A stretch of DNA of 27,319 nt from Gammaproteobacteria bacterium. GTDB taxonomy: Bacteria > Pseudomonadota > Gammaproteobacteria > Eutrophobiales > Eutrophobiaceae. The notes beneath the pieces are model-generated. The model saw only the letters and a program-made list of their open reading frames with translations, searched no databases and was not told the origin of the DNA. Shown in pieces: positions 4,211 through 27,319 of the stretch. The DNA lies in assembly GCA_963582285.1 (NCBI GenBank), contig CAUZRI010000001.1, positions 1 through 27,319 of the forward strand, given 5' to 3'. The translations under genes were made by a program, and so were the position numbers. The stretch's first letter is position 1. Every line of letters begins with the position of its first letter.

Positions 4211-6118
4211 TTATACTTTTCGGGAACGTAGATCCGCCACAGAAAACTTCTGATACTGTGTGAGGCCTGCACCGGTACCCCAGGAGGCTGTACGGGCATC
4301 GATCATATACGGACGACCGTCTTTCAAGGTTCGGAATCCACGTTGAATCGCTGGTCGTACCTGATCACTGTTAGAGACGACCTCACCGGGAATATTATAA
4401 ACCGAGGCCAATTTGGCGAAGTCCATATCTGGATCACCCAGGAAGGAAACGTAATCACGATTCGCCTCGCCAGCAGCACCAGCGCCCATGATACGGAATC
4501 GCGTTGCCTCATAGCTGCGATTGTTCAATATTATTGTCAAGACCGGGACATCGTAACGCGACATGGACCAGAGTGAGTCAGACTGGCCAAACATAAATCC
4601 ACCATCTCCCTGTAAAGAAACCACCTGTCTGTCAGGCAGCGCCAATTTAGTTCCTACCGAGGCACCAACTCCCCAACCCAGGGCCATACCCGTGGTACGA
4701 CCTATTTTTAATCTACCCTCTGGACTAAAATTAATATGACTTACGGTCCTCTCTCCCCGACCCAGTTCTTCAACTACCACGGCATCGGGATCCATCAGTT
4801 CATCCAGTTCGTAGAGTAACTTTTGCCAGGGCAAAGGATCTCCCTTACTTAGACGCCCGGCTTCCCGGGTCCCTGCATGCTTGCCAGCGGAGTATGTTGA
4901 TATTTTTAGACGACGTTCCGCGGTTCGCCTTTTAAGTTGCGCAGGACTTGCCATACTTTTTATAGCTTCCACCAGGTCTTTTGCGATTAAATCAATATCT
5001 CCAAGCAAACCAACCGCGGTAGGGGCATTGCGACCAATTTTCTCCGGATCTACACTGGCATGGATTAACGGGATCCTGCGATTTTTCATAAAGGTCTCCA
5101 TGCCTTGCGTAGCCCGGGTACCAATACTGATACAGCAATCAATATCATGGGGATAAAACTGCATATAGCTTGGCAGGTTGAGCAAATAACCAATATGCAG
5201 CGGATGATAATTGGGAAAATCACAATGAAAGCTTCTGGAATGTTGCGCCACCGGTATCGCCAACAACTCTGCCAGCTCAACAACTGAAGGAATTGCATTA
5301 CATTGACTAATCTCAAAACCCACTTCCATCAATGGTGAATTTGATTCAAGTAGAAATTTTGCCGCCCTTTCAATCTCAACGGGGTCGGGTCTCAATTCCA
5401 TTGAAACATTTAGCGCCTCTTTGGAATAAACACTTGCTGTCACATCAGATGCATACAGGTGATTCCGTGGAACACGAATATGAGTAGGTCCTCCTGGCAT
5501 AATATTGGACAGTTTGTACGCCCTGCGTGTCCATTCAGCCATTCTATTTGATTCATGGACTACCCATTGCCATTTGGTATAAGGCTTGACCGCTTCTGTC
5601 CAATCATCGAGATCCTCATGGGTATCCGTGCCTTCATTTGTGGAACTGGCATGATCACTGATTACTACCAAGGGTGAGCGGTCCTTCATGGCGTTATACA
5701 TACTGGAACTTGCATTGGGTAAACCAACCCTGCTAAACATGCAAAATCCTGTTTTTCCTGATGCCTTAGCATAACCATCGGCGATAGATACTACGTGACC
5801 TTCATGGGTCGCCTGGATCAGGGTCAGTTTCCCGGGGCGTTCAACCAACGCATTACATATCGGTCCTAATCCGGAACCATTTGCAATAAATAAATATTTT
5901 GCATCCGTCTCGAGAATTTGCTCAAGCATTACTTCCGCACCGGTACCGGTTACTGAACGTGTGTAACCTTCGGGCATTTCAGACCCTGGAATAAAAGGTT
6001 CAACTGCTGCCAAAGCCGACCTTGCGGCAGTCACGCCATAACTGGCTGCTGCCATCCCTGCCAAAAAACCACGTCGTGATATTTTGGCGTTAATTAGTTC
6101 TTTTACTAGCTCGCGCAT
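4211..6118 (-). CDS. Thiamine-diphosphate-dependent enzyme (benzoylformate decarboxylase/acetolactate synthase-like fold) with a predicted Tat signal
   Basis: ATHEGHVVSIADGYA (catalytic Glu motif) and GDGGFMF...IILNNRSY (GDG-x-NN ThDP/Mg motif). N-terminus SRRGFL plus a hydrophobic stretch and ALA-A cleavage site. GGGGGA ribosome-binding site. Confidence 0.9.
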   Translation of the reverse strand: MRELVKELINAKISRRGFLAGMAAASYGVTAARSALAAVEPFIPGSEMPEGYTRSVTGTGAEVMLEQILETDAKYLFIANGSGLGPICNALVERPGKLTLIQATHEGHVVSIADGYAKASGKTGFCMFSRVGLPNASSSMYNAMKDRSPLVVISDHASSTNEGTDTHEDLDDWTEAVKPYTKWQWVVHESNRMAEWTRRAYKLSNIMPGGPTHIRVPRNHLYASDVTASVYSKEALNVSMELRPDPVEIERAAKFLLESNSPLMEVGFEISQCNAIPSVVELAELLAIPVAQHSRSFHCDFPNYHPLHIGYLLNLPSYMQFYPHDIDCCISIGTRATQGMETFMKNRRIPLIHASVDPEKIGRNAPTAVGLLGDIDLIAKDLVEAIKSMASPAQLKRRTAERRLKISTYSAGKHAGTREAGRLSKGDPLPWQKLLYELDELMDPDAVVVEELGRGERTVSHINFSPEGRLKIGRTTGMALGWGVGASVGTKLALPDRQVVSLQGDGGFMFGQSDSLWSMSRYDVPVLTIILNNRSYEATRFRIMGAGAAGEANRDYVSFLGDPDMDFAKLASVYNIPGEVVSNSDQVRPAIQRGFRTLKDGRPYMIDARTASWGTGAGLTQYQKFSVADLRSRKV

Positions 6119-6187
6119 GTCATCCCCCAGAATATTGTTATTGAACTACCGCTTGAGATAAGATTATTTCGGTTAAATTATTAAGCA

Positions 6188-6478
6188 TTAATTCTCGACT
6201 GCCATATTATTTACCAAGTATTTGCGTACGGTCTCAAGATCTTTTACATCAACTACAGCACCTCTTGCCAACATATCATAAAGCGCATTTTCCCATTGAC
6301 TGGCATTAAGACTAACCCTGGTTAAATGACCTAGTCCATGACATTGACTACAAGCGACAAATACAATATCTCTGCCCTCTCCTTCAGGAAACGCTTGTTG
6401 TGCATTTAATGAAAAAGGAAGAAATAGAGCGAACACTAAATATCCCGCAGTAACGTAAACCTTGACCTTATTTTTCAT
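6188..6478 (-). CDS. Small monohaem c-type cytochrome (SorB/SorU-like class I), secreted
   Basis: Signal peptide ending SLNA-Q; FPEGEG...CSQCH haem motif; W..ALYDM..RGA putative distal Met; YL..N tail. Ribosome-binding site nearly identical to that of the ThDP gene. Confidence 0.9.
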   Translation of the reverse strand: MKNKVKVYVTAGYLVFALFLPFSLNAQQAFPEGEGRDIVFVACSQCHGLGHLTRVSLNASQWENALYDMLARGAVVDVKDLETVRKYLVNNMAVEN

Positions 6479-6697: not shown

Positions 6698-7432
6698 ATG
6701 TCAATTCTCGAAGAATCCCTTGAAGAACTCGTTACCGCAAATCATATCCTGGCTAGAGAAGGTGTGGTTGATTCATTTGGCCACATTAGCGTACGCCACC
6801 CGGATAATCCCGACCACTATCTATTGTCCTGCTCAAGAGCACCCGAGTGCATAAAAGTTGAAGATATAATGGAGTTCGCATTGGATGGAGAACCTTTGGA
6901 TGCAAAAGGTCGTGACCCTTATGCAGAACGAGCAATACACGGATCTGTTTATGAGGCCCGCCCCGATATCAATGCTGTAGTCCACAATCATAGTCCTAAT
7001 GTCATTCCATTTGGTGTAACCGATACTTGTTTAAGACCTTTACTGCATATGGCAGCCGGTATGGGTTCGAATGTTCCCATATGGGATTCACGCACCAAGT
7101 TTGGGGATACAACATTACTGGTTACCACCATGGACATGGGCAGAGACCTGGCAGTGATGTTGGGAGAAAATCGCGCTGCATTGATGCGTGGTCATGGTTG
7201 TGTGGTGGTAGGTAAATCTGCAAGAGAAGTAGTGTTTAGTTCTATCTACCTGGAGATGAATGCCGAATTACAGTTTAAGGCGGCGATGCTTGGTGACATA
7301 ACCTTTCTTAGTGATGGCGAGGTGGATGCCATATTACAACGACGCGGTCCTTATACTTTCGAACGGGCCTGGGAACGTTGGTGTGGTCGCGCTGATCGAC
7401 CTTATGAATCAGCACCGGGAAGTGCTGCATAA
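6698..7432 (+). CDS. Class II aldolase/adducin-fold protein, decarboxylase-like subfamily
   Basis: DSFGHISVR, ERAIH, VVHNHS and LMRGHG metal-binding motifs; ends ERAWERW. From memory it resembles the 3-hydroxy-2-methylpyridine-4,5-dicarboxylate decarboxylase subfamily. Confidence 0.88.
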   Translation: MSILEESLEELVTANHILAREGVVDSFGHISVRHPDNPDHYLLSCSRAPECIKVEDIMEFALDGEPLDAKGRDPYAERAIHGSVYEARPDINAVVHNHSPNVIPFGVTDTCLRPLLHMAAGMGSNVPIWDSRTKFGDTTLLVTTMDMGRDLAVMLGENRAALMRGHGCVVVGKSAREVVFSSIYLEMNAELQFKAAMLGDITFLSDGEVDAILQRRGPYTFERAWERWCGRADRPYESAPGSAA

Positions 7433-7484
7433 TAAAATTTATCACAGAGATAAATTCAATTTTTTTTATTTATTTAAAATAAAT

Positions 7485-7503
7485 GGACAGGATTTACAAG
7501 ATG
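7485..7503 (-). repeat. Inverted copy of the 9-mer-periodic motif
   Basis: GGACAGGATTTACAAGATG; its reverse complement matches 1266-1283 over 18 consecutive bases and faces the direct copy at 7589. Confidence 0.7.
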
Positions 7504-7588
7504 GTTTTTGATTTATTGAGATATTGAACCTACCCTCACTTCCGTATGTTCGAATTGTTATTACCTTCACAATTTTATGTATACATAA

Positions 7589-8055
7589 ATCTTGTTAATC
7601 CTGTCTATTTTATATTTTTCTTTTGGTTACTAGCTTTGCCAGTTTGTCGGATTATTAAAGCCCCGTCATTCTGGAAAGTCCATAGGACTTGTCCGGAATC
7701 CATGCTGATTTGAACAACGGCTGGATTCCCGCCTTCGCGGGAATGACGTACGAGAAATCTCCACCCCACACATATTCAATACATCCTGTTTATCTTGTAA
7801 ATCCTGTCTATTTTATATTTTTCTTTTGGATACTAGCTTTGCCAGTTTGGCGGATAATTAATGCCCCGTCATTCCAGAAAGTCCGTAGGACTTGTCCGTA
7901 ATCCACACTGGTTTGAACAACGGCTGGATTCCCGCCTGCGCGGGAATGACGTATGAGGGATATCCTCACCCCTCACATATTCAATACATCTTGTTAATAC
8001 TGTTAATCCTGTCTATTAATTGATTGGATACTGGTATTTACCCAGAGGCACAAGG
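7589..8055. repeat. ~204-bp tandem duplication of a composite REP-doublet unit (2 full copies plus the start of a third)
   Basis: AATCCTGTCTA anchors at 7597, 7800 and 8005 (periods 203 and 205). Each unit holds CCGTCATTC..AAGTCC-NNA-GGACTT..AATCCA, the linker TTTGAACAACGG, and TGGATTCCCGCCT(T/G)CGCGGGAATGACG. Confidence 0.9.
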
Positions 8056-8100
8056 CGCTAGAAAAACGAGATGAAGCTACTATTACTGTTTCGTTATATA

Positions 8101-9708
8101 TCAATGGCCAGTGGCGATCGCTACCAGTTTTACTAGATCAACAGGGGCTTCGTTACCGCGCCATACAATATGCAGGTCGGGCCGCAATAAGAACAATTCA
8201 TAACCCTCATAAACCTCTACTGCGTGGGGATCATCCAGGGATAAGGTTTCAAATGGTGCGCCTTGTTTTTCAAACTCTGAAATCAAGGCTGATAGATCTT
8301 CCCGTCCATTTTCAAATCTGAGTAAAATATACCCCTTACCTAGATGGTCATGTATCGCGGTTCCATCCTTGAGCCAGACATGTGGAAGTCGAAAACCTGG
8401 CCATGTGGTGGGGATATAATCAGGATTATCTGCATCAGGTCCTTCACCATCCGCCGGCCAGATTAACGGTGAATTAATATAACGATAACCGGCCTCTATA
8501 CCAAGGATCTCATTGGTTTTTCGTTGCTCTGTATTAGCAATCTCGGCAACATTGGCACGGATCTCTGCACCTTCTGGGGTATTGTCACGGATTTCAGGAC
8601 GCCAAGCAGAGCGCCATTTCCGCCGACCGGAATTTGCCCTGCCCGATGCCACAACATTTCTTATGCCAATCTGACGGCGTTCTGTCTCATAAGAGGTCAA
8701 CAGATTTTCTCCTCCCCAACCTGCGAGCATTCCCTGTAATTTCCAGGCGAGATCAATTACATCGCCTGCACCAGTATTCATTCCCAGGCCACCGGTAGGG
8801 ATGACTAGATGTGCAGCATCACCAGCTATTAAGACTCGACTCTCACTATATCTATCTGCTACCAATAATTTTTGGGTCCACTTACCGATGTACAGGGTTT
8901 CATATTCGATCGGCATACCCACTAACTTTTCAAATAGTCCAGGCATTTCAGATTCGTCCTCTACTACGGCATGCAGTGTAAAATGTTTGGTATCATCCTG
9001 GACGATGATAAAACCCGCCTGGTCATCACAAACATGGTAATGTCGGCCCTTACCGATAGGAATTCGTTCATACAGATCATCACACCTGAACAACGCCTGG
9101 TGCAAAGACAACATATCCCCTTCACCTGAAAACTTTATTCCCAGCTGTTTTCTCACTGGACTTGCTGCCCCGTCACAACCCACAAGATAATCACCTCTTA
9201 TGGTCTCTTCGGATCCATCAGCGCCTTTCACATAGGCAACCACTTGATCCCCATTGTCTTCAAAACGAATAAATTCACTACCAAACCGTACATCAATAAA
9301 TTCATTACGTTCCGCAATACGCTTCAACAACGGTTCGAGGGTATATTGGGAAATAAGCTGATAAGGTTCGAGTGTGCGAGTACCATCATTGTGAGCAGCA
9401 ATATCTTCCTTACAATCCTTTACTGAACCATAAGGCAATCGCAAGATAGGTTCATCCACCAGACTGGTTACCACAAAAACATCCATTGGGCATTCTGCAG
9501 GGAGACCCGCTGCACGGATTTCATCCACTATGCCAAGTCGTCGGTAAATCTCCATAGTCCTGGCATTACAACGCTCCATCTTTGGCAGGCCTGAAGGTGC
9601 ATCATTGCGTTCAAGTAAGATACAACGTACACCGAGGTGACCCAAAGCAATAGAAAGTGTAAGACCTACAGGTCCCGCACCGACAATTATTACTTGTGTA
9701 TCTGCCAT
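8101..9708 (-). CDS. FAD-dependent aromatic hydroxylase (group A flavoprotein monooxygenase, PheA/TfdB/RdmE-like)
   Basis: IVGAGPVG Rossmann motif, LVGCDGA DG motif, LIAGDAAH and GGLGMNTG GD motif, and a C-terminal thioredoxin-like domain (PGFRLPHVWL...RPDLHIVWRG). Confidence 0.93.
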   Translation of the reverse strand: MADTQVIIVGAGPVGLTLSIALGHLGVRCILLERNDAPSGLPKMERCNARTMEIYRRLGIVDEIRAAGLPAECPMDVFVVTSLVDEPILRLPYGSVKDCKEDIAAHNDGTRTLEPYQLISQYTLEPLLKRIAERNEFIDVRFGSEFIRFEDNGDQVVAYVKGADGSEETIRGDYLVGCDGAASPVRKQLGIKFSGEGDMLSLHQALFRCDDLYERIPIGKGRHYHVCDDQAGFIIVQDDTKHFTLHAVVEDESEMPGLFEKLVGMPIEYETLYIGKWTQKLLVADRYSESRVLIAGDAAHLVIPTGGLGMNTGAGDVIDLAWKLQGMLAGWGGENLLTSYETERRQIGIRNVVASGRANSGRRKWRSAWRPEIRDNTPEGAEIRANVAEIANTEQRKTNEILGIEAGYRYINSPLIWPADGEGPDADNPDYIPTTWPGFRLPHVWLKDGTAIHDHLGKGYILLRFENGREDLSALISEFEKQGAPFETLSLDDPHAVEVYEGYELFLLRPDLHIVWRGNEAPVDLVKLVAIATGH

Positions 9709-9813: not shown

Positions 9814-10929
9814 TCAACTCAAAGGCGGTAGCGTTGCCTTCTCTGCCTCATAGGATGGCGCCATATGTGATTCCAGTCCCTTTTCAGAAAGAGCATCTGC
9901 AAAAATAGTTCGCACTTCCTGACTCTCATCAGCGTAATCAATCTGATGACCACCAATACGTTTACTAATCCACGCTTTAGGGACACCTTGAGCGTTGCGG
10001 ATAGCTACACCTTCATACTTGAATGCCAGATAACGTGCCGGCGTGGTACCAGTATTAAAATGTTGATGGAACCACATATTAGGTGGTGTAATCAGCGTAC
10101 CTGGATGCCAATCATAACGTATGGGTTCCTCGCCTTCAGGCCACATAAGGGAATAACCAGTTCCGGCAAGTAAAATCACATGGGCACCAGGACCATGGGC
10201 GTGGGCCTTCTTATAGGTGCCCACAGGAAACTGAGAGATATGCGTATTCATGGAACTCTTGGCCATGTTGAAACGAATATGCCCACCACCAGCACCGCGC
10301 TCTTTAGCCTCGATTAAAGGTAGGTTCACCGCATCAGTAACAAAATTTGTTTCGAGCAACAGTCCATCGACCTCTTCCTTGGGTGCGAAGTAATCAGGCT
10401 CTCCTGAAAAGCGTCCTTTGAAATCATAAGCTGTATTGAATATAAATTCAGGGTCTTCAAGAACATTCATAATTGGCGGTAAATTAGTAACTGCGACAAA
10501 TCTGACCTTTTCTGTTCCTGAACCATTGTAGTGTTGATGCATGGTATTTAAGGGTATTGAAAACATCGCCCCTGCCTGCCATTCAAAGGATACCTTCTCG
10601 CCGGCATCGTTCCAGACTTCCGTAGACCCACGACCACTAAGGATCATAATCATCTCTTCATAGAGCTGTCGTTGGGCGGTTAATTTTTCTCCCGGGTCAA
10701 TCTCACATAGATAACAATCATTGGAGGTCCTGGAAGCATCATGATTAATGTAGACCCCATGTCCATTTCTTCTGGCCCAGGGCTTTAATTCAACTGTATT
10801 CAGGTCTTCTTGATAGATCCCGTCAATAATATCCAGTCCCTCGTTTTTTACCCAACGGGTATAGGGGGTTTCTTTTTCTTTTGCGAATTTTTTGGCAGTC
10901 TCTTCAGAGACAATTGCGTCTTTGGCCAT
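9814..10929 (-). CDS. Bicupin, gentisate 1,2-dioxygenase-like fold, cytoplasmic
   Basis: C-terminal cupin YKKAHAHGPG...PPNMWFHQHFN (three-His site); N-terminal cupin partly degenerate (QRQLYEE...MHQHYN). Start moved from 10989 to the ATG at 10929 because of a GAGGA Shine-Dalgarno ~7 nt upstream. Confidence 0.85.
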   Translation of the reverse strand: MAKDAIVSEETAKKFAKEKETPYTRWVKNEGLDIIDGIYQEDLNTVELKPWARRNGHGVYINHDASRTSNDCYLCEIDPGEKLTAQRQLYEEMIMILSGRGSTEVWNDAGEKVSFEWQAGAMFSIPLNTMHQHYNGSGTEKVRFVAVTNLPPIMNVLEDPEFIFNTAYDFKGRFSGEPDYFAPKEEVDGLLLETNFVTDAVNLPLIEAKERGAGGGHIRFNMAKSSMNTHISQFPVGTYKKAHAHGPGAHVILLAGTGYSLMWPEGEEPIRYDWHPGTLITPPNMWFHQHFNTGTTPARYLAFKYEGVAIRNAQGVPKAWISKRIGGHQIDYADESQEVRTIFADALSEKGLESHMAPSYEAEKATLPPLS

Positions 10930-11186: not shown

Positions 11187-12950
11187 CTAGTCAGGTAAGG
11201 CGAAGACATATATAGCATTGTGTCCACGCACTGCTTTTACATCACTTACCATACCTACAACACTGGAGGTTGCCGAGAGGCCATCACCAGTCAAAATAGC
11301 AATATATTGTTTGCCATCTACCATGTAGGTAATGGTGCTGGTCTGGATAATGCCCGGTACCATGGTATCCCAAAGAATTTCACCATTGTCTGCATCAAAG
11401 ACATGGAGGGTGCCAGTAATGTCACCCCAGACTACCAGATCACCTGCTGTCAATAACACCGCACCGTTGCCAGGTGCCCGTTGAGTATGTATATGAACGA
11501 CTTCACCGGTAGACATATCGACTTTCGCCAAACCGGCAAACGCATTAGGATCAGCGCCATCACGAAGATGGGATGTTCGTACATGGCCATTTACCGTATT
11601 GAGTCTTCCGATCCTGGAGACACAAATATCGTGGTATGGAACGTAGAGTGAATTATTACCAGGATGGTAAGCCATAGGCCAGTAACCCTTGGTATTCTGA
11701 AAACAGGTAGTGTGTTGTTCGCCTTCACGGGTCAAGATCTTATCACGGCTGATAAATGTCTGACCCGTTTCCACATCGATATCAGCGATATGAAAATCCG
11801 GGGTATCGTGAGGGAAAGGGATGGTCCATAAAAATGTGCCATCGTTTCTATCCAGCACCCACAGCCCTCCGGGTTCACCCACCGAGACCACCATGTCTCT
11901 CTCTTGTCCACGGGCAATATTGGGATTAATCCATTTCACCTGATTTGGATCTGGATTAAATGTGGAGCGAAACAGTATCCTTTCGTGGGTATGATCCGAA
12001 TCCCAATCGTCTCCAGGGAGATGTTGATAATACCAGGCCAACTCTCCGGTATCGGGATCCAATGCCAGGGTGGAATTACTATAAAGTTCAGACGGCGTTG
12101 AAAGTGATACATCAAATGGCTTGCCATTATGTCGTTTAATACGGGTATGGGGCGCCGGGTTGGCGGTGCCCCAATAGATTAAATTTCTCTCAGGATCAAA
12201 ACTTCCCGGCAAACCCCAGGGTGATGCCAGTCGCAAGTCATCGTCCATACTCCCCCAGGTATCACCACCGGGTTCACCGGTTCCGGCCGGAACAAAAAAA
12301 CGCCAGACCTCTTTTCCTGTTAATGCATCGTGGGCAAGAATATAACAATACTTACGGGTATCCCCACAATTTCGACCGGTAATGACCTTGCCCTTAACCA
12401 CCGAAGGACCTGTAGTATGTTGTGTATTGGTTTTATAGTCATGGGCAAATGTTTCCCACCTGAGCATGCCTGTTTTTGCGTCCAGGGCAATCACGTATCC
12501 ATCGGCCGCTGAGTGATAGATCATGTCATCATAAATGGCCAATGTGCGCGCACGGCCTACGGCATTTTGATGGTCATCTATATCCGCTGGTAGTTCTCTT
12601 TTGTATTCCCAAATCAATTCGCCGGTTTTGGCATTCACCGCCTGGATAACAGACCGAGGGTTGGCAACAAACATTATGCCTTTGTAAACCAGGGGGATAT
12701 TTTCCTGGGTACCATCATGCATGTCATGAGACCAGACCATTTGTAGTTGGTCGACATTATTACGATTGATTTGATCTAGGGGGCTGAAACGCTGATTGTC
12801 ATAGGTACGGCTGTACATTAGCCAGTCACCGGAATCAGGGTGTAGTAATGTTTCATCCGTAACTGGTTCGAATGATTCCATTTGTGCCTGGCTGGCAATA
12901 CTCAACATCATGATTAAAATTGGAATAATATTTTGTATGAACTTATGCAT
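11187..12950 (-). CDS. PQQ-type beta-propeller dehydrogenase, secreted, copy 1
   Basis: Signal peptide ending SQA-Q; GDWLMYSRTYDNQRFSPL(D)QI; repeated A.D..TG...W tryptophan-docking motifs; YWGTANP; DDWDSD; TAGDLV; VDGKQY; ends YVFALP. Confidence 0.92.
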   Translation of the reverse strand: MHKFIQNIIPILIMMLSIASQAQMESFEPVTDETLLHPDSGDWLMYSRTYDNQRFSPLDQINRNNVDQLQMVWSHDMHDGTQENIPLVYKGIMFVANPRSVIQAVNAKTGELIWEYKRELPADIDDHQNAVGRARTLAIYDDMIYHSAADGYVIALDAKTGMLRWETFAHDYKTNTQHTTGPSVVKGKVITGRNCGDTRKYCYILAHDALTGKEVWRFFVPAGTGEPGGDTWGSMDDDLRLASPWGLPGSFDPERNLIYWGTANPAPHTRIKRHNGKPFDVSLSTPSELYSNSTLALDPDTGELAWYYQHLPGDDWDSDHTHERILFRSTFNPDPNQVKWINPNIARGQERDMVVSVGEPGGLWVLDRNDGTFLWTIPFPHDTPDFHIADIDVETGQTFISRDKILTREGEQHTTCFQNTKGYWPMAYHPGNNSLYVPYHDICVSRIGRLNTVNGHVRTSHLRDGADPNAFAGLAKVDMSTGEVVHIHTQRAPGNGAVLLTAGDLVVWGDITGTLHVFDADNGEILWDTMVPGIIQTSTITYMVDGKQYIAILTGDGLSATSSVVGMVSDVKAVRGHNAIYVFALPD

Positions 12951-18340: not shown

Positions 18341-18375
18341 AAACGCAAACGGCCCGGGATTACCCGGGCCGCGTT
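18341..18375 (-). terminator. Probable terminator after the secreted cupin
   Basis: 9-bp GC stem CGGCCCGGG-TAAT-CCCGGGCCG followed by TTTGCGTTT on the minus strand, ~30 nt past the stop at 18401. Confidence 0.7.
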
Positions 18376-18400
18376 AATTTTAATACTTTACGAATTAAGC

Positions 18401-19814: not shown

Positions 19815-20828
19815 TCAGGTGTAATCTGAAAAATAGGGGAAGACCCTTAACGCAAACGCGATGACGATAAAGAAGGCGGCGGGCAGCACGAACCAGTGAT
19901 ATACGGGTACTTGCTGTACATATTCCCGGGTGATTACCCGACCCTTTTCCAGGGCATCAATCCCTGCAGATGCAGCGAATAGATCGTCCTTGGTCTCAGC
20001 ATCAAAATAATTACCCCCATATTCTAATATTGTCTCGATCAACTGCTGCACATTTTGTTTTTCCTTAATCTTTTGTTCCAGGTCTACTCCAACCAGATGT
20101 ACCTTTATTCCAGTCAGAACAATTGGGCCGAGTGCTTCAATGGGATCCCGACCAAAATTATGTTCTCCGTCTGTATACACCATAATCACCTGTCCCCTGT
20201 TCTCTTCTCCCTGTTGCCTGAGTAAAAGCGAATAAGCGAGAGCAATGCCGTCACCAATAGCAGTTTTTTTCTCATTTTTGAGAATATTTTCATCCACCAT
20301 GTCGAGATAATGCAGCAAAAAATCATGGTCCAAGGTGAGTGGACTGATTATGTAGGCGTGGTCAGCAAACACTATCATGCCGATGCGGTCATCTCTGCGG
20401 CCAATAATAAAGTCTCGTAACGCATCCTTGGTGGTTTGCAGACGAGTTCGACCCTGTTGTGTCATAGTCATTCTCTCAAGCTGGACTCGACGACTAACTT
20501 CAGGCAAATTTTCCCGATCCATCACCTCTTGCATACTCTCTGATAAATCAAGAACGATAGCGATATCCAAACCCTGTGATTCCACTTCCTGTTCTGCCAT
20601 GGGCAATACTGGCTGCATGATTGAAAAGATCAATAACACGATAGCCAACAATAATAATGTAGCAGGGAGCTGTCTGATCAATGATGAACGAATTAAAACA
20701 GGGCTTAGCAGGCTCAGCGTAGTTGAGGCAATATAATTGGATTTATTTAGGAATCGCCAGGCGAAAAATATCAGAAAGAATACGAGAAACAACCAACCGA
20801 ATTGTGGCTTAAGAAAATTCAGGTCCAT
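19815..20828 (-). CDS. Membrane-anchored vWA protein (BatA/MxaC-like)
   Basis: Two N-terminal hydrophobic segments, MIDAS DLSES, DRIGMIVF, SPLT.D, TAIGDGI, TDGEHNFG, and a C-terminal TM helix. Confidence 0.88.
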   Translation of the reverse strand: MDLNFLKPQFGWLFLVFFLIFFAWRFLNKSNYIASTTLSLLSPVLIRSSLIRQLPATLLLLAIVLLIFSIMQPVLPMAEQEVESQGLDIAIVLDLSESMQEVMDRENLPEVSRRVQLERMTMTQQGRTRLQTTKDALRDFIIGRRDDRIGMIVFADHAYIISPLTLDHDFLLHYLDMVDENILKNEKKTAIGDGIALAYSLLLRQQGEENRGQVIMVYTDGEHNFGRDPIEALGPIVLTGIKVHLVGVDLEQKIKEKQNVQQLIETILEYGGNYFDAETKDDLFAASAGIDALEKGRVITREYVQQVPVYHWFVLPAAFFIVIAFALRVFPYFSDYT

Positions 20829-20833
20829 TATTA

Positions 20834-21835
20834 TCAGGTAAGCAGGCTTTCTGCAAAAGAGATACCAACCTCAACTCGATCAGCTTCTGGCATATTTTCA
20901 TGTTTACCATAACGTGCCTGCTCACAATCTTGCAACACTAAAACCAGTTCATCCACTTTTAGAGTAATATCATTATTCTTCAATTTGGCGGCTAGTTCGT
21001 TTGCAGTCAAGGCTATAGCCATTATCCCTGTTGTCTTCTCAATATATTCTTTGAGTACTTTTTCCAACTGGTCAAAACACTCACTTCGTTGTTGCTTATC
21101 CTGAATATCATACTGCTTAATTTTCTCTAGCTCGGTTGACGTCACCTGTACAATTTTATCCAATTGATGTTGAGTATCAGGCTTTTGTTCACGAACACGA
21201 TTGGTGATATAAAGGCCAGCAGGAATTCCCGTTAGCATTATTAATAGCAATCCAACTGTCCCCACCATCCCCAACCATGATATTATTAGTTGAGCTGGCA
21301 GCAAATCGCGAAGCGCAAGGCTGCTTAATTCTGCAGGTAGTGTGCTACGTAGCACTAACGATGTAGTGGGCACCACAACTTCACCCACCGTCGCAACATC
21401 TTCAATCCGTTGCCCGGGCCGCTTGTAATAATATCGTAACCTCAACTCATCAATTTTTAATTCTGCTGTGCCAACTTCATAGGTAATCAAGCTATAACTG
21501 GCAAAATATTGCGTTCCAGACGGGTTAGTTGTTTGCTTAATATTAGAGGTAATCAACTCTAGCCCTGTAAGTACAAGCTCGTCTTCAGCCAAGTCATCCA
21601 TAAGAATATCGACATTATTACTACAGAGGATCTCCACATAGTAAGTAAGTCGATCGCCCGGGAATAATGCTGTCCTGTCTACCCAGCTTCGAACGACAAC
21701 ATCGCTACTTTCGGTACCTGACTGACTAGCCTGATCAACACCCTCCACTGAGGACTGGGCATATAATGTTGTTGAAAAAATCTGCATGGCCATGAATAAA
21801 AGACTGGTGAAAATGAATTTATTAATAATTTTCAT
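20834..21835 (-). CDS. Exported, single-TM accessory protein of the MoxR operon (MxaA/BatD-N-like)
   Basis: Signal peptide ending LYA-Q; VDRTALFPGDRLTYYVEI beta-rich domain; internal TM helix (WLGMVGTVGLLLIMLTGIPAGL); helical C-terminal domain (EKTTGIMAIALTANEL...ARYG). Overlaps the DUF58 stop codon (ATGA). Confidence 0.7.
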   Translation of the reverse strand: MKIINKFIFTSLLFMAMQIFSTTLYAQSSVEGVDQASQSGTESSDVVVRSWVDRTALFPGDRLTYYVEILCSNNVDILMDDLAEDELVLTGLELITSNIKQTTNPSGTQYFASYSLITYEVGTAELKIDELRLRYYYKRPGQRIEDVATVGEVVVPTTSLVLRSTLPAELSSLALRDLLPAQLIISWLGMVGTVGLLLIMLTGIPAGLYITNRVREQKPDTQHQLDKIVQVTSTELEKIKQYDIQDKQQRSECFDQLEKVLKEYIEKTTGIMAIALTANELAAKLKNNDITLKVDELVLVLQDCEQARYGKHENMPEADRVEVGISFAESLLT

Positions 21836-22713
21836 AACCTTTTCCTTGTGGAAAACATTTTTAGTAAGGGTTCAACCACATGCTTATCCGACCTGGCAAA
21901 AACATAATCCATCGGTGCCCTGTAAAAGGCATTAATCAGTCCCTGATGATGTTTCTGCATGGTTTGCGCATACAAGTCCCGTTGAGAGTTACCCAAGCCT
22001 ACAAGTTTCCTGGTACCACTCTCCACATCCATATATTCAATACTGGAATTTCCGGCAGGTAGATGCGATTCATTCGGGTCTTCAACTACCACTGCAACAA
22101 TATCATGCTTTAATGCGAGCATGTTCAGGGCGCGTGAGTTTGTAAGATCATCATCTGTCATAAAATCAGAGATCAAAAATATAATCCCTTCCTGACGGAA
22201 GTGTGTTCCGAGAAAATCAATCGCTGGCAACAAACAGGACTCTCCAGTTTCAGATTCTGAAGACCACAACTCCTCTAAAAACTTCCACGCCCGTGCACGG
22301 TTGTGCCGGGGGGGGTAATAATTCAGTACCTTGTCGCTGAACATCATGAAACCGATATTTACCTGATCTGCAAGAGATGAATAAATAAGGGATGCGGCAA
22401 GTAACAACTGTCTCTCTTTTTTAGACCAGGCCCTGGTTCCATATTCCATACTTTTTGTTACGTCTACTGCGATAACGACATTCAGTTCCCGGTCTGCATG
22501 GGTCTCTCTGACATAAGGAACGTTCATTCGCGCCGTCACATTCCAGTCTATCCTGCGCACATCGTCACCGGCGCGATAAAGCCGGTGTTCATCGAATTCA
22601 AAGCCAGGCCCGCGTAGCATGCTTTGGTAGGTGCCTGTCCTGAGATTTGGAAAACGACGTTTGGTATAGATCTCGATATAACGTAGTTCGTGTATTAAAT
22701 GATCAGGTAGCAT
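21832..22713 (-). CDS. DUF58 family protein (MxaS-like)
   Basis: GPGFEFDEHRLYRAGDDVRRIDWNVTAR signature, then a vWA-like VIAVDVTKSM and FLISDF; directly downstream of the MoxR ATPase. Confidence 0.92.
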   Translation of the reverse strand: MLPDHLIHELRYIEIYTKRRFPNLRTGTYQSMLRGPGFEFDEHRLYRAGDDVRRIDWNVTARMNVPYVRETHADRELNVVIAVDVTKSMEYGTRAWSKKERQLLLAASLIYSSLADQVNIGFMMFSDKVLNYYPPRHNRARAWKFLEELWSSESETGESCLLPAIDFLGTHFRQEGIIFLISDFMTDDDLTNSRALNMLALKHDIVAVVVEDPNESHLPAGNSSIEYMDVESGTRKLVGLGNSQRDLYAQTMQKHHQGLINAFYRAPMDYVFARSDKHVVEPLLKMFSTRKRL

Positions 22714-22728
22714 GATGGGTTGCAGGTG

Positions 22729-23751
22729 CTACGGTATCGCTACATTGTTGATAATACTATTTATAATATTATCGGATTCGATGCCTTCCACTTCTGCGCG
22801 CACTGTGCGCGATATCCTGTGTCTTGCGGCATCCGGAAAAATTTCTTTTACATCCCCTGGCAGGATGTAGTCCCTACCATTGAGAAAGGCGTTGACCCTG
22901 GAAAGCGCTAATACATGTTGATAGGAACGTGGCGACATACCCAAAAGCACCATTTCCTTAATATCAGTCAATCCAACCGTTTCAGGTGCCCGGGTCGCCC
23001 TGCCAAGTCTGACGATATATTCCAGAATCTTGTCATCGACATGTACATCTGTATATATCATTTTACGAATGTCTGTGACCTGATCCGTTGTCAATCGTTT
23101 GGCAAGATCCAGTTTCTCAAAGCGGTGATGCAACATTTCAATTTCTTCATCTGCACCAGGATAATCAACCCTCAGCATCATGCTAAAGCGGTCCAACTGC
23201 GCCTCAGGTAAGGTATAGACCCCCTCCTGCTCTACGGGGTTTTGCGTAGCAAGGACCCAGAAAGGATCAGCCAATTCAAATGTAGTGTCAGCCAGGGTTA
23301 CCTGGCGTTCCTGCATGGCTTCCAGCAATGCACTTTGGGTTTTTGAGGTGGCCCGATTAATCTCATCGGCAAGCAATACATTAGTAAATACCGGTCCTTT
23401 ATCTATCCTGAAACTTGCAGTATTGATTTCATATATTCGGGTACCAATTATGTCTCCAGGCAACATGTCCGGGGTTAACTGGATACGCTGAAAGTCTGCT
23501 GAGATTGTCTTAGCCAGGGTTGTTGCGGTAAGCGTTTTGGCAACACCCGGCACCCCTTCCAGCAACACATGGCCACAACCTGTTTTTACAACGCCCTCAG
23601 TTATTGAGTATGGAATGGCAGCAAACAATCCCGTTAATAACCTGCGTATCATTAATTGCTGACCTACGATGACTTTGCCAATTTCTTTTTCAATGACATT
23701 TATAAGATCATAAGCAGCGGTACTATCAAGTTGGGTTTTATCCTGCATCAT
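22729..23751 (-). CDS. moxR: MoxR-family AAA+ ATPase
   Basis: GHVLLEGVPGVAKT (Walker A), RIQLTPD, LLADEINRA (Walker B), TQSALLEAMQERQVT, LATQNPVEQEG.Y.LPEAQLDRF, and SPR. Confidence 0.96.
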   Translation of the reverse strand: MMQDKTQLDSTAAYDLINVIEKEIGKVIVGQQLMIRRLLTGLFAAIPYSITEGVVKTGCGHVLLEGVPGVAKTLTATTLAKTISADFQRIQLTPDMLPGDIIGTRIYEINTASFRIDKGPVFTNVLLADEINRATSKTQSALLEAMQERQVTLADTTFELADPFWVLATQNPVEQEGVYTLPEAQLDRFSMMLRVDYPGADEEIEMLHHRFEKLDLAKRLTTDQVTDIRKMIYTDVHVDDKILEYIVRLGRATRAPETVGLTDIKEMVLLGMSPRSYQHVLALSRVNAFLNGRDYILPGDVKEIFPDAARHRISRTVRAEVEGIESDNIINSIINNVAIP

Positions 23752-24759
23752 CTATGTCCTGATAAATAAATATAAAATTGCAAAAAAAGCAAAAAACAAT
23801 AGTGGACTGTATAAATCCATATGTTCAACAGTCCGCTTCCACCCTGTTTGTTTTTGCTCTTGTCTGACAACCTCATTTAAAGAATCTGCCAATTCATGTC
23901 CCGTAGAGGAACGAAAAAAACTGCCATGGGTCATTGATGCGACCTGACGTAGAGTAGATTCATTAAACTGAGTAGTAATTTGATTACCTTCTTCATCCAT
24001 AAGATACTCAGCTGTTCCATCCTGGTAAGCCAATGGTATGGGCACCGCCAAGTCTGTACCGATTCCAATGGTATGTACACGAATATCAGCTTCATTCAAT
24101 TGATTTAAGTAGTCTATCAGCTCCGTACTTTCATCGTCTCCATCTGATACGAGTAAAAAAGTTTTTTTCGATTGCGCTTCATCTTTTGAAACCATATCCA
24201 TGGCTGAACCAATAGCGCCCGCTACATTTGTACCATAGTAGATATCATCATCTTCACCTATCCAGTCCAAAAAAAAGAACAAGGTTTCAAGATCACTGGT
24301 TAAATGTGAAAGAATCACAGAGGTCCCTGAAAACCCAATTAAACCAACCCGGTTAATCGCATCCGGCTTATTTACCAGGAAAGATTTAATCTCCCTGATT
24401 GCCCTGGAAAAACGTGAAGGTGGAACATCCCGTGCCTGCATTGAAATCGATCTATCTAAAATTAATATCAGGTCCTGCTTTTCATATTCGGGGATTAATT
24501 TTTCAATAGATAATTGAGGTCTTAACAAGGCCAACACCAATGAGATTGATACAACTGATATAGCTATTAATGTAAAGATATCTTGTTTGTTAGTTGAAAG
24601 CCTGGAGATGGATCCCAATGATAATCCATAACCTTCCTGCAATCTGAATCTACGTTTTGCGAGGATGTGTAACCAACAAAAAATTACCAATAAGGGGACA
24701 ATTAAAACGCTTATTGCCATATCAGGTTGTAAAATATTAAATTCTGGAAAATTAAACAT
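23752..24759 (-). CDS. Membrane-anchored vWA protein (BatB/MxaL-like)
   Basis: N-terminal TMs, LLRPQ, MIDAS DRSIS, D..PSR, RVGLIGF, GTN, LVSDG, VHTIGIG, and a C-terminal TM. Its stop codon abuts the moxR start. Confidence 0.88.
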   Translation of the reverse strand: MFNFPEFNILQPDMAISVLIVPLLVIFCWLHILAKRRFRLQEGYGLSLGSISRLSTNKQDIFTLIAISVVSISLVLALLRPQLSIEKLIPEYEKQDLILILDRSISMQARDVPPSRFSRAIREIKSFLVNKPDAINRVGLIGFSGTSVILSHLTSDLETLFFFLDWIGEDDDIYYGTNVAGAIGSAMDMVSKDEAQSKKTFLLVSDGDDESTELIDYLNQLNEADIRVHTIGIGTDLAVPIPLAYQDGTAEYLMDEEGNQITTQFNESTLRQVASMTHGSFFRSSTGHELADSLNEVVRQEQKQTGWKRTVEHMDLYSPLLFFAFFAILYLFIRT

Positions 24760-24768
24760 TTTATGACA

Positions 24769-25356
24769 CTATCCTGTTTGTCTGAAGGGTTGTTCTCCCT
24801 GGCGTGGTCTTGGACGCAGAATCTCCAATACCTGTGGTGGAGATTCGTCCTCATTTTTTAAACTATCAATAAGACGATTGGTTAATTCGTAATTATATTT
24901 TGCATCCCAGTTTTCGGGTTCGAATTTGAGCACGCTAAGAAACTCTTCGCTTGCCCTTTGCAGCCATGCTATCTGCTCCTGAGGCTCATTAAATTCACTG
25001 GCACGTCTGAACAGAGCGCAACCAGCCCAGTAATGTATAGGTGCCATTACAGGACTACTAGAAGATTTCTCCAATAATGCATCATACTCACCAAGCTGGT
25101 AGAGAATATAAAACTGGTTTTGCAGTGTCGCACTATACACATCCGGTAAGAATAGTTTTGCGAACCCGAAGCTTTCAAAGCGTTGTTCTGCGCGGTCAAA
25201 ATCTTCAAGACTTTCATTATATGATTCATGTTCAAATGCCTGTTGAGCATCCATATAGGGATTGAGCCACAATGAAAGAAGTATAAAAGACAGACCACAT
25301 AAAAATGTAACCGACATAACAAACCACACAGCAGGAATTTTGAGTATTCGGTGCAC
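24769..25356 (-). CDS. Membrane-anchored TPR-like protein (MxaK/BatC-like)
   Basis: GTG start with a GGGGG ribosome-binding site; N-terminal TM; helical repeats; YWAGCALF...FLSVLKFEPENWDAKYNYEL resembles the P..WDA(K/R).N motif I recall for MxaK/BatC. Confidence 0.7.
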   Translation of the reverse strand: MHRILKIPAVWFVMSVTFLCGLSFILLSLWLNPYMDAQQAFEHESYNESLEDFDRAEQRFESFGFAKLFLPDVYSATLQNQFYILYQLGEYDALLEKSSSSPVMAPIHYWAGCALFRRASEFNEPQEQIAWLQRASEEFLSVLKFEPENWDAKYNYELTNRLIDSLKNEDESPPQVLEILRPRPRQGEQPFRQTG

Positions 25357-25720
25357 TACACCCCCAATTTCAATTGGTCTTATTTCAGTAGAAAAACAGT
25401 GTGATGATAGTAACTTAAAAGTATTTTATGGGCAAACACAAGGCAGGGAAATTACTAACAGTTAAATCATATAACGTAACAATTCAACCTCTTTAATAAA
25501 CATAATCACCACGCAGGGCACTGAGCTAAACGAGAGACAAACCAACATAAGGATCGATTAGTCTGCTAACAGGAAAATGTGTATTTACAGAAATATATAA
25601 GCATTCTTGAAATTGTAGTTTTTATATAAAAAAATCTAAACTCTAAATCACAAAAAATTTATTAGGTTTTAAAAGAATTGATATTCTATTCTGCCTTTAC
25701 TGAGGCAAACTACATATTCT

Positions 25721-27319
25721 TTAATTACGACTGGGGATATGCGGCGGTGTTTGCTGCCAACGCCACAGTGTTGTGGGAGTGCTTTTCTCAACCTCCCAGG
25801 CAGCAACATCCAGATTGGTATTAAACTTCAATTTATTACCTCGTAATTGAGTATCTTCAAAAACTAACTGTCCTCCTATCATGGTCATAACAGGGTATAG
25901 GCTATCCAATTCCTCAACATCCACTGCCATGTAATCACCATTAAGGATAATAATATCTGCCCACTTGCCCGGTTCAATAGAACCTATCTTGTCATCTTTC
26001 CATATGGAATATGCCCCCCAACGGGTCATCATTAATAATAATGTTAATCTATCTGGTACTGCTTCTTCCGGAACGCCAAAATTTTTCCCTTCTATCTTGC
26101 GCGTCATCCACATAACACCATCTTCAAAAGGTGAATGACGGATTTCGCTCTGACTACCGAACTCACTTATCATTGTTCTGGCGCCGGCCTTTAACATACT
26201 CGCTACTGGTGCATTAAAGGTCAGATACTCCTCACCATAATCTTCTTCCAGTACCTGACTGGGGACACGCGTGGCATCACAGGAAAATGCCATGTTAATG
26301 CGAGCCGCAATCTCGATTTCTTCCTGAGTCACAGAATGACAATGGTCTACCTGCAGGCGCAGAGTGCGTAATTTTTCTATTGGGATCCCTGCGTTTAATA
26401 CCGTATCCAGATAGGCCCGTATTGCCTTGTCCCCTGCCACATGCCAACCAGGAATGCCTGTTTGTCTGCCTTCTGCTGCTAGCTCAGCGAGTACCTGTAA
26501 ATGCTCCAGTTTCCGAGTAAAGAAATCCCCATCGGGACATAATTCGCGTGACTTTAGTTCTGCTGTCTTCGCAGGGAGTGAGGTACACCAGGCCACGCCA
26601 CCACCATCCAGGCCACCTGCACTACTACCGATACTCCACATATGATCCGATCCATACCCTACCCAATCACCAATTCGCCAGTAGGTTTCTTTTACCAGAG
26701 GATTGAACGGTTGCATCCAGCGATGACCCCAGGCAAGACGGATGGGCATCAACTTGTTTCTGTCCAGATGTATGGAGGCATTGAATCCGCCTTCACACTG
26801 TACATGTGTCTTATGGGTGGTCACACCGTTCTGAGCGTTGAGCTGCATTACCTGAAAATAAGCACGGGTATATTCATCCCGGCGATTGGACTTAGGTAGA
26901 ATAATATCGCTACGAACACATCTGGGTCCATCGGTGTAATCACCAGACCAACCGGTTTTTTCATCGGTCCAAAAATCATCTGGTATAGGATTGCGGTAAC
27001 GTGCCTCAATAGACTCAATGCCACGCGTGTTGTAGACGGCACCACCCCGGGTACTTACGACCACAGGATTATTAGTTGTTAGAGGATCAAGAAATTGTCT
27101 GGTTAATGTCTTGCCGATAGCCTGTACTGCTACCTGTGCGGGGTTTACCCGCACCTGTATCCATTGGCCATCGGGTATTTGTCTAACCCTTGCAACCAAT
27201 GCCTTGCCCAGATTATCAACCAGTACATCAGGCGTTTCCGCAGAGACAGACAATTGAATCAATTCTGGTATTGCCTTTAACACCCAGGGAAAGGATGTGA
27301 GTGTGGTTTCGTAAAGATG
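25721..27319 (-). CDS. Amidohydrolase family 3 (YtcJ-like) metallohydrolase, 5'-partial (runs off the window end)
   Basis: The frame is open to base 27319 (HLYETTLTSFPW-VLKAIP...). Motifs WHVAGDKA, VDHC, MTRWGAY, GSIEPGKWADIIIL and MTMIGGQLVF. Confidence 0.88.
   Translation of the reverse strand, partial: HLYETTLTSFPWVLKAIPELIQLSVSAETPDVLVDNLGKALVARVRQIPDGQWIQVRVNPAQVAVQAIGKTLTRQFLDPLTTNNPVVVSTRGGAVYNTRGIESIEARYRNPIPDDFWTDEKTGWSGDYTDGPRCVRSDIILPKSNRRDEYTRAYFQVMQLNAQNGVTTHKTHVQCEGGFNASIHLDRNKLMPIRLAWGHRWMQPFNPLVKETYWRIGDWVGYGSDHMWSIGSSAGGLDGGGVAWCTSLPAKTAELKSRELCPDGDFFTRKLEHLQVLAELAAEGRQTGIPGWHVAGDKAIRAYLDTVLNAGIPIEKLRTLRLQVDHCHSVTQEEIEIAARINMAFSCDATRVPSQVLEEDYGEEYLTFNAPVASMLKAGARTMISEFGSQSEIRHSPFEDGVMWMTRKIEGKNFGVPEEAVPDRLTLLLMMTRWGAYSIWKDDKIGSIEPGKWADIIILNGDYMAVDVEELDSLYPVMTMIGGQLVFEDTQLRGNKLKFNTNLDVAAWEVEKSTPTTLWRWQQTPPHIPSRN

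Follow-up and report, generated by a model that had tools for sequence, protein, structure and literature searches.

We analyzed a 27,319-nucleotide stretch of DNA (the window) from an uncultured marine gammaproteobacterium of the genus Candidatus Eutrophobius. The window carries a gene island that combines a thiamine diphosphate (ThDP) enzyme and its neighboring cytochrome c, two pyrroloquinoline quinone (PQQ)-type dehydrogenases, two bicupins, a TonB-dependent receptor, a MoxR operon and enzymes of aromatic-ring type. The combination suggests an undescribed route by which imported acids, probably aromatic ones, are oxidized outside the cytoplasm. Our best reading, to which we assign a probability of roughly 50%, is that this modular, genus-conserved island oxidizes its substrates to carboxylates in the periplasm, with cytochrome c as the electron acceptor, followed by decarboxylation and ring attack in the cytoplasm. 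The island itself is a mosaic: its cassettes recur in other combinations in relatives, which makes it a toolkit and not a single fixed pathway.

The window is the entire contig C1 of a 1.8 Mb metagenome-assembled genome (G000) that is ~60% complete. The nearest named genome is that of Candidatus Eutrophobius brisbanensis (order UBA4486/Eutrophobiales, Gammaproteobacteria; PMC11758582), and a near-complete window sequence is present in 18 seawater or marine metagenome runs. Nearly all window genes lie on the minus strand, with the gene at 6698-7432 on the plus strand. Pfam and NCBIfam searches of the window's open reading frames gave the following domain calls for the island genes, with cellular locations as predicted from their leaders:

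4211-6118, minus strand: ThDP enzyme with a twin-arginine translocation (Tat) leader, decarboxylase/acetolactate synthase superfamily (Pfam TPP_N/M/C)
6062-6079, minus strand: twin-arginine motif of the ThDP enzyme
6188-6478, minus strand: small monoheme cytochrome c, 96 amino acids, with a Sec signal (CSQCH at 6338-6352)
6698-7432, plus strand: class II aldolase-fold, decarboxylase-like protein, cytoplasmic (Pfam Aldolase_II)
8101-9708, minus strand: flavin adenine dinucleotide (FAD)-dependent aromatic-ring monooxygenase, cytoplasmic (FAD_binding_3 and Rng_hyd_C)
9814-10929, minus strand: leaderless bicupin, cytoplasmic (Cupin_2)
11187-12950, minus strand: PQQ-type dehydrogenase 1, exported (Pfam PQQ; D-x-D at 11994-12002)
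13016-14779, minus strand: PQQ-type dehydrogenase 2, exported, 73% identical to copy 1 (D-x-D at 13823-13831)
15093-17987, minus strand: TonB-dependent outer-membrane receptor, 964 amino acids (plug and barrel, signal peptide, no signaling extension)
18401-19585, minus strand: Sec-exported bicupin (candidate three-histidine metal site at 18575-18724)
19815-25356, minus strand: six-gene MoxR operon (Pfam and NCBIfam)
25721-27319, minus strand: Amidohydrolase_3 (Amidohydro_3) hydrolase, 5' end cut by the contig end (Pfam)

A ThDP enzyme with predicted export, encoded with a cytochrome c

An earlier note on this DNA had read export signals on the ThDP enzyme (Tat), the cytochrome c, two PQQ propellers and a bicupin, beside a TonB receptor and a MoxR operon, and each of these features is found at its position. 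Sec-type signals, in which a short charged N-terminus leads into a hydrophobic stretch and a cleavage site with small residues, precede the cytochrome (predicted cleavage LNA/QQ), both PQQ enzymes (SQA/QM), the receptor, the bicupin at 18401-19585 (VNA/QG) and an unassigned protein of the MoxR operon; script-based calls agree with motif-based ones. By script and motif, no signal is found on the bicupin at 9814-10929, the FAD enzyme or the aldolase-fold protein. The amidohydrolase at 25721-27319 is missing its own 5' end and is probably periplasmic, as its full-length orthologues bear Sec signals. Inspection of the window's open reading frames of at least 100 amino acids showed neither a regulator nor an inner-membrane transporter nor a pqq gene, as the earlier note had also stated.

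Textbooks place ThDP enzymes and ring-cleaving cupins in the cytoplasm. Most island enzymes carry export signals. To call exported cupins unprecedented would go too far, as the fold neighbors include the Tat-exported bicupin MncA (PDB 2vqa).

The ThDP enzyme has the PYR, middle and PP domains and the fold of the decarboxylase/acetolactate synthase superfamily, with an activating glutamate (E106) and a GDGG..NN motif that are invariant in 22 homologues. Its leader, MRELVKELINAKISRRGFLAGMAAASYGVTAARSALA/AV (slash marking the cleavage site), contains ISRRGFLAG...SALA/A, a pattern typical of Tat substrates from which export is predicted, and the first ThDP domain begins at residue 59. In an alignment of the 22 homologues (58-96% identity), leader residues S14, R15, R16, F18 and L19 are invariant. 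More broadly, 66 of 78 full-length family members from 80 loci bear a strict [ST]RRx[FL] motif, and most of the remaining 12 have RR variants or mis-called starts. TatC is found in the near-complete congeners G003 and G005, and was not found in the 60%-complete G000.

An AlphaFold model of the enzyme (pLDDT confidence score 79.7) is about equidistant from BbmA, acetohydroxyacid synthase, glyoxylate carboligase, benzaldehyde lyase and benzoylformate decarboxylase, with FAD-binding and FAD-free neighbors equally far away. These nearest folds all show 18-23% identity, and the searches tie the enzyme to no specific known enzyme. In flavin-dependent ThDP oxidases of the pyruvate oxidase/PoxB type, electrons leave the enamine through FAD held by the middle domain; the start of this domain in the window enzyme, VGPEV, resembles the benzoylformate decarboxylase type rather than the GxG type, which is no more than a lead. 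Benzoylformate decarboxylase MdlC (PDB 1bfd) is among the best sequence and fold matches and shares the three-domain ThDP fold, the activating glutamate and GDG..NN. However, the window enzyme is ~22% identical to it and scores 204 bits against the NCBIfam cut-off of 493 for the benzoylformate decarboxylase equivalog PRK07092; moreover, it has a 55-residue Tat leader and is encoded with a cytochrome c, whereas the known enzymes of this flavin-free group are cytoplasmic and non-oxidative.

We surveyed the ThDP family with one genome per species, which gave 80 loci, all from uncultured bacteria. These comprise Woeseiaceae and other Gammaproteobacteria, Rhodospirillaceae, Micropepsaceae, and, within the Acidobacteriota, Terriglobia, Bryobacteraceae, Blastocatellia, Pyrinomonadaceae, Thermoanaerobaculia and Luteitalea. 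For the 64 ThDP genes with at least 600 bp of flank on both sides, we counted same-strand CxxCH genes within 1.5 kb: 50 of them have one to three such genes of the cytochrome family, and the paired taxa span Gammaproteobacteria, Alphaproteobacteria and Acidobacteriota. Three of the 14 unpaired genes come second in a ThDP-ThDP tandem, with the cytochromes standing by the first copy, and four more have weaker cytochrome-like matches directly downstream. Within the genus, a cytochrome copy precedes every ThDP gene on the same strand; this also holds for a paralogue of 57-59% identity at a second locus. Among 40 relatives, close ThDP orthologues are confined to the genus, barring matches of 36-38% identity in G024 and G038.

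The cytochrome belongs to class I of the c-type cytochromes: a pattern of PxGxG(R/K)...CxQCH...W...DM..RGAP...YL, including CxQCH and DM, is conserved across 77 sequences, the protein has a signal peptide, and the cytochrome c maturation genes CcmF/C are present in G000. No Pfam or PDB match rises above threshold. As a further lead, a language-model search places it near clusters that partly bear a quinohemoprotein amine dehydrogenase heme domain (PF09098-like). Longer proteins fusing the cytochrome to another domain were looked for and none was found, which is weak evidence. A single cytochrome-cytochrome-ThDP frame at L090:9332-11893 was considered and rejected as a fusion, as the ThDP part keeps its own methionine and Tat leader; the cytochrome end probably carries a frameshift in this long-read acidobacterial assembly.

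Two further associations bear on the role of the pair. In five loci of a second Tat-ThDP family, 25% identical to the first, another kind of small cytochrome (PF13442 type) comes after the ThDP gene. Similarly, on G000 contig C110 (1064-3258), a cytochrome of the same family as the window's (signal peptide, CSQCH, QM..QGAP) lies ~170 bp before a same-strand PQQ dehydrogenase. PQQ dehydrogenases are known cytochrome c reductases; the C110 pair thus makes the cytochrome look like a dehydrogenase acceptor, and together with the second ThDP family it makes the ThDP enzyme look like the electron donor of its cytochrome. On the strength of this conserved pairing, we propose that the cytochrome is the electron acceptor of the ThDP enzyme.

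Bicupins, quinoproteins and their partners

The two window bicupins are 34% identical and belong to one new family, which is present in 8/8 genus genomes, in 0/32 other relatives (of the 40 searched) and in 16/80 ThDP loci. The leaderless copy, whose likely start is the ATG at 10929 rather than the GTG at 10989, is conserved at 89-91% in congeners. A family alignment shows invariant histidines in the C-terminal barrel (H275, H288, H290, H335 and H337 in exported-copy numbering) and loss of the histidine ligands from the N-terminal barrel. The AlphaFold model of the exported copy (pLDDT 79.3) has a generic bicupin fold, whose neighbors at template modeling (TM) scores of about 0.45-0.5 include oxalate decarboxylase, vicilins, MncA, and gentisate and salicylate dioxygenases. 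Fold searches pointed to no specific known enzyme.

Two known groups invite comparison. Gentisate and salicylate 1,2-dioxygenases (three-histidine Fe(II) enzymes; PDB 3bu7 and 2phd) share the bicupin fold, and the HxH...H of one barrel aligns with 3bu7. This alignment covers the C-terminal barrel alone (E 8e-6), and in the fold search 3bu7 gave the lowest root-mean-square deviation at a TM score of about 0.5. However, identity is 10-18%, the histidine site of the window family lies in the C-terminal barrel, many members are exported, no gentisate 1,2-dioxygenase family model is matched and the fold similarity is generic. MncA of Synechocystis is a Tat-exported periplasmic manganese bicupin that folds and takes up its metal before export, with no known catalytic role; acidobacterial members of our family likewise bear Tat leaders. 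The window's exported copy differs in being about 10% identical to MncA and in having a Sec signal, and hence must acquire metal once it is in the periplasm.

Three tandem bicupin types occur together in acidobacterial loci, each with a Tat leader of the form M(R/K)xL(L/V)xxLxxGx(I/V)SRRxF (L069:18242-21911, L072:14471-16801, L089:14822-21652 and L095:9841-13870). These leaders have the same extended segment before the arginine pair as the ThDP leader of the window (6062-6118), and this common n-region suggests a common Tat proofreading chaperone. The acidobacterial bicupin loci also hold the ThDP pair, UbiD, UbiX, a DASS dicarboxylate transporter, CoA-transferase III and an outer-membrane barrel. 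With the family in all eight genus genomes and in acidobacterial ThDP loci, exported cupins are a conserved feature and not an oddity of one genome. Tentatively, and with the odds somewhat against us, we propose that the ThDP enzyme, together with its private cytochrome c, constitutes a new class of periplasmic respiratory dehydrogenase, a ThDP-dependent aldehyde/2-oxo-acid:cytochrome c oxidoreductase that works with new exported three-histidine bicupin oxygenases, the leader M(R/K)xLxxxLxxGxISRRxF common to both in Acidobacteria implying a common export chaperone or coordinated maturation.

Several side observations concern the bicupins. Acidobacterial Tat bicupins have histidine-rich tails or inserts with runs of H and D (L086:84-1355, L092:1051-2325, L095:12590-13867, L069:19595-20956), and a HupE/UreJ permease is encoded in a Eutrophobius island (L016:13529-14611); together these hint at nickel or cobalt handling. 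EutA-like ATPases adjoin bicupins, the cytochrome-ThDP pair and a MoxR gene (C102:3339-6128, C179:417-3062, L042:7803-9425 and 17887-19467, L028:20479-21905), and congeners have a EutA-like gene and a third bicupin just past the window's left end.

The PQQ enzymes are of sorbose/alcohol-dehydrogenase-like type. Among solved structures, copy 2 is closest to 4cvb, an alcohol and carbohydrate dehydrogenase of Pseudogluconobacter (E 4e-95), then to 7wmd, 9m2c and sorbose dehydrogenase 4mh1, and the two copies score 337-339 bits against a cut-off of 480 for the methanol/ethanol dehydrogenase model TIGR03075 (Pfam PQQ, E 1e-55). Both copies bear W-D317-S-D319, aligned in copy 2 with WDSE of 4cvb, and this matches the D-x-D signature, an extra aspartate two residues past the catalytic one that marks lanthanide PQQ dehydrogenases (PMC11996626); we accordingly regard them as putative lanthanide enzymes. 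A clade in which all members have D-x-D is related to sorbose dehydrogenases and occurs mainly in Acidobacteria and Gammaproteobacteria, and the sorbose-dehydrogenase-like group is promiscuous (PMC11996626). A C-x6-C pair, taken as rewiring in a separate note by the same reader, is also present in 4cvb.

The genus probably scavenges its PQQ, judging from gene content. We did not find pqqC in five genus genomes, four of them at least 94% complete, while the same search placed pqqC above the family cut-off in 11/81 class genomes (the unpublished G063 among them), providing a positive control. All five genus genomes hold one full-length PqqU-like receptor each (G000:C161:2657-4579, G003:C3:2022370-2024316 and G005:C1:1679468-1681423, for example), at 410-445 bits, below a cut-off tuned to E. 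coli. PQQ scavenging has reportedly been described in a published study, and the genus pattern fits. We considered the cluster receptor at 15093-17987 as a PQQ importer and rejected it: the PqqU-like gene lies on C161, and the PqqU model matches the cluster receptor over the plug only. With that gene on C161, the cluster receptor would more likely import a substrate, or possibly a metal.

The MoxR operon encodes, in order, a TPR-like membrane protein, a BatB-like vWA protein, the MoxR ATPase, a DUF58 protein, the unassigned exported or anchored protein (weak DUF4381) and a BatA-like vWA protein, with gaps of 0-15 bp or overlaps. It shares its MoxR AAA_3, DUF58, BatA-like and BatB-like membrane vWA and TPR-like proteins with the Bacteroides aerotolerance (Bat) operons; BatA and BatB are the best-matching models for the vWA proteins, with scores below the Leptospira BatA/BatB cut-offs. 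The window operon differs in having the TPR and BatB-like genes before MoxR and in standing constantly beside the exported bicupin in the genus. This adjacency is seen in six congeners (G002, G003, G005, G006 and G007 by name), and is kept even where the operon's unassigned protein is only 33-37% identical.

Overall, the island recalls the MxaFI-MxaG system with MxaRSACKL, and PedE/PedH: an exported dehydrogenase, a small soluble cytochrome c acceptor and a nearby MoxR-DUF58-vWA operon, with PQQ genes of the same superfamily bearing the lanthanide D-x-D. However, the window cytochrome has a ThDP enzyme, and no quinoprotein, as its conserved partner; the PQQ genes resemble those of sorbose dehydrogenases and score under the TIGR03075 cut-off; the pqqC search of five genus genomes found none; and the Bat-like MoxR operon is permuted relative to mxaRSACKL, whose order is MoxR, DUF58, MxaA, vWA, MxaK and vWA, with no methanol dehydrogenase.

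TonB-type outer-membrane receptors are the commonest neighbors of ThDP genes (22 plus 11 loci), and receptors 42-52% identical to that at 15093-17987 stand by PQQ, ThDP or bicupin genes in other loci. This is consistent with the earlier proposal that the substrate enters by the TonB receptor, an entry that we infer. The full-length orthologue in L016, 86% identical to the amidohydrolase at 25721-27319, heads a tandem array of four paralogues; in relatives, such arrays of four accompany two exported serine hydrolases and a HupE/UreJ permease. G000 has ~30 Amidohydro_3 tblastn matches, with five in tandem on C21, others on C84 and several beside MoxR genes (C17, C32).

The cytoplasmic set is of aromatic or heteroaromatic type, as had been claimed. 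The product of 6698-7432, a gene divergent from the cytochrome-ThDP pair, matches PDB 2z7b near full length (E 3.9e-55 over residues 7-231, about half of positions identical by a hand count of the alignment). This structure is Mlr6791, the Mn-dependent 3-hydroxy-2-methylpyridine-4,5-dicarboxylate (HMPDC) decarboxylase of vitamin B6 degradation in Mesorhizobium (PMC11841055). The product also shares the class II aldolase fold family of the 3,4-dihydroxyphthalate decarboxylase PhtC. However, no other vitamin B6 degradation gene was recognized in the window, and the PhtC score (NCBIfam 75, cut-off 200) is far under the cut-off. The FAD monooxygenase best matches RebC (PDB 2r0c, E 4.6e-73), lies above the NCBIfam cut-off for PRK06126 and is also near chlorophenol and hydroxybiphenyl hydroxylases. 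Judged by homology, the two enzymes would suit an ortho-hydroxylated aromatic or pyridine (di)carboxylate, to be decarboxylated by the one and hydroxylated by the other. Distant ThDP loci, acidobacterial and gammaproteobacterial, hold UbiD/UbiX, LigXa-like Rieske oxygenases, DASS and TctA/B (TctABC) transporters and CoA-transferase III; carboxylate transporters together with UbiD/UbiX in the same loci fit a scheme of periplasm first, cytoplasm second.

A mosaic island, a working model and its alternatives

Comparison with eight congeners shows how the island is put together. Six of the eight retain a block composed of the amidohydrolases, the MoxR operon, the exported bicupin, the receptor, the cytoplasmic bicupin, the FAD hydroxylase and the decarboxylase, within which the receptor and the hydroxylase vary. 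G003, G005 and G006 keep the window order with one PQQ gene and with no receptor between it and the exported bicupin. The second PQQ copy, a recent paralogue, is seen only in the window genome among the compared loci; G002 and G007 have none in the block. G007 has a paralogous group of MoxR, amidohydrolase, bicupin and receptor genes 20 kb away. Within G000, several pairs recur: PQQ-receptor on C7 and C87, MoxR-amidohydrolase on C17 and C32, bicupin-EutA-like on C102 and EutA-like-MoxR on C179. Further afield, MoxR and vWA genes lie near amidohydrolase, cytochrome and ThDP genes in two Woeseiaceae loci (L035 and L037).

In the model we favor, compounds too large for porins would enter by TonB-dependent receptors. 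Sec-exported amidohydrolases, lanthanide-type PQQ dehydrogenases, the exported three-histidine bicupin and the Tat-ThDP enzyme, each with its export signal, would then process them in the periplasm. Going by gene pairing, the ThDP enzyme would be exported folded with its cofactor and would act as a dehydrogenase that converts an aryl aldehyde or 2-oxo acid to a carboxylate, passing two electrons to its own cytochrome c and on to the respiratory chain. Homology suggests that an aromatic or heteroaromatic (di)carboxylate would be taken up and finished by the HMPDC-decarboxylase-like enzyme and the RebC-like FAD hydroxylase, and that the leaderless bicupin may be a cytoplasmic ring-cleaving dioxygenase. 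The MoxR/vWA operon may mature or metallate one exported enzyme, the weakest step of the model. The periplasm-first catabolism of the earlier note is partly supported, by the export signals of most enzymes and by the recurrent ThDP-cytochrome pair; its reaction order, substrate and electron flow are matters of inference.

RNA assemblies touch much of the island. Contigs of four seawater metatranscriptome runs (at least 99% identical) fall on the ThDP, cytochrome, cytoplasmic bicupin, both PQQ, receptor and exported bicupin genes, and one contig bridges the cytochrome-ThDP gap (6070-6313). Almost none fall on 20219-24210, within the MoxR operon; uncovered parts carry no evidential weight.

A number of points weigh against the model. 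In G002 and G007 the block is intact without the ThDP pair or the PQQ genes, which are both located elsewhere; G003 lacks the FAD monooxygenase at the same place; and receptor position and PQQ copy number vary among congeners. The earlier view of one fixed system does not survive these differences. The 60%-complete G000 has expanded families (~30 amidohydrolase matches, seven more MoxR and six more PQQ genes), and some of the neighborhood could therefore be chance. Four of the 14 unpaired ThDP genes are outliers at 39-40% identity with no cytochrome. Flavin-free benzoylformate decarboxylase is nearest by sequence to the ThDP enzyme, making a plain decarboxylase or lyase conceivable, and no computed result shows a flavin or a redox step in it. 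Our literature searches found no paper on exported ThDP enzymes, and the ThDP, cytochrome and bicupin families are without a characterized member. Finally, signal peptides were called by motif and by a simple script applying hydrophobicity and the -3/-1 rule, not by a trained predictor, and the RNA evidence consists of assembled contigs, from which transcription cannot be proved nor genes ranked.

The alternative that survives best, which we consider doubtful but serious, is that independent cassettes from expanded families (PQQ with receptor, MoxR with amidohydrolases, bicupin with helper, cytochrome with ThDP) came together by chance and act on different substrates. The intact block of G002 and G007 fits this explanation, as do the many G000 paralogues with the same pairs on C7, C87, C17, C32 and C102, and a 69-70% identical ThDP-cytochrome pair of G002 and G008 that stands alone. 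However, the bicupin meets the ThDP-cytochrome pair again in Acidobacteria, with a common leader style; MoxR, amidohydrolase and the ThDP pair come together in the Woeseiaceae loci; and congeners retain the block order at protein identities that have dropped to 33-57%. The earlier note had named shuffled neighbors in relatives as the mark of a random cluster, and half of that picture is found: neighbors are partly shuffled, but the same combinations recur in distant lineages, which argues against pure chance.

Also unlikely, in our judgment, is a ThDP enzyme that acts in the periplasm without oxidation, as a decarboxylase or carboligase/lyase in the manner of benzoylformate decarboxylase or benzaldehyde lyase, with the cytochrome c serving other dehydrogenases such as the PQQ enzymes. 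This would agree with its nearest sequence and fold neighbors, which are flavin-free decarboxylases and lyases, with the cytochrome-PQQ pair on C110 and with the PQQ genes in the window. Nonetheless, many loci retain the pair where no PQQ gene lies within 10 kb, each of two unrelated Tat-ThDP families has a cytochrome of its own, and up to three cytochromes stand directly before the ThDP gene in Terriglobia. An island that oxidizes sugars or polyols, in which PQQ enzymes would, like those of acetic acid bacteria, produce periplasmic keto-sugars or keto-acids for the ThDP enzyme to decarboxylate or cleave, is improbable: the matches to 4cvb and 4mh1 and the NHL/SGL gluconolactonase-like propellers in 14 ThDP loci speak for it, but the PQQ genes are the least constant part and of a promiscuous group, and the census of ThDP-locus neighbors and the 2z7b match lead us to downgrade it, the constant neighbors being of aromatic-acid type (HMPDC-decarboxylase-like, RebC-like, UbiD/UbiX, LigXa-like Rieske).

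If periplasmic oxidation by the ThDP enzyme is borne out, an exported ThDP enzyme wired to cytochrome c would be a new type of respiratory dehydrogenase, and uncultured, abundant aquatic and soil bacteria (UBA4486, Woeseiaceae, Acidobacteriota) would begin to degrade dissolved organic matter, and draw energy from it, outside the cytoplasm. The Sec-exported, Tat-exported and leaderless versions of one bicupin family offer a natural test of export route against metal choice. The ThDP-cytochrome pair, and the putative lanthanide PQQ enzymes in a genus apparently without PQQ synthesis, are targets for expression and assay.

Flanking genes, receptor remnant and spacer

Three further features lie at the left end of the window:

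2-934: asparaginase-like gene
1291-2490: HMGL-fold gene
2851-3972, minus strand: C-terminal remnant of a TonB-dependent receptor, 373 amino acids (Pfam barrel only)

The asparaginase-like and HMGL-fold genes (2-2490) keep their position by the ThDP gene in G001, G003, G005 and G006, and may therefore be part of the same island. At the position of the remnant, G005 has a full-length receptor, as do loci L027 and L028; ~2.3 kb of the orthologous receptor gene (L027 3672-5961; the relative is 91-96% identical) has no counterpart at 2851-3972. The same window holds a different full-length receptor and the second PQQ copy at 13016-17987.

The aldolase-fold gene and the FAD monooxygenase gene converge on a 668 bp spacer (7433-8100). 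Contigs from RNA libraries run into unrelated sequence in this spacer, with loose ends at 7696-7951, a pattern of breaks expected of dispersed repeat elements.

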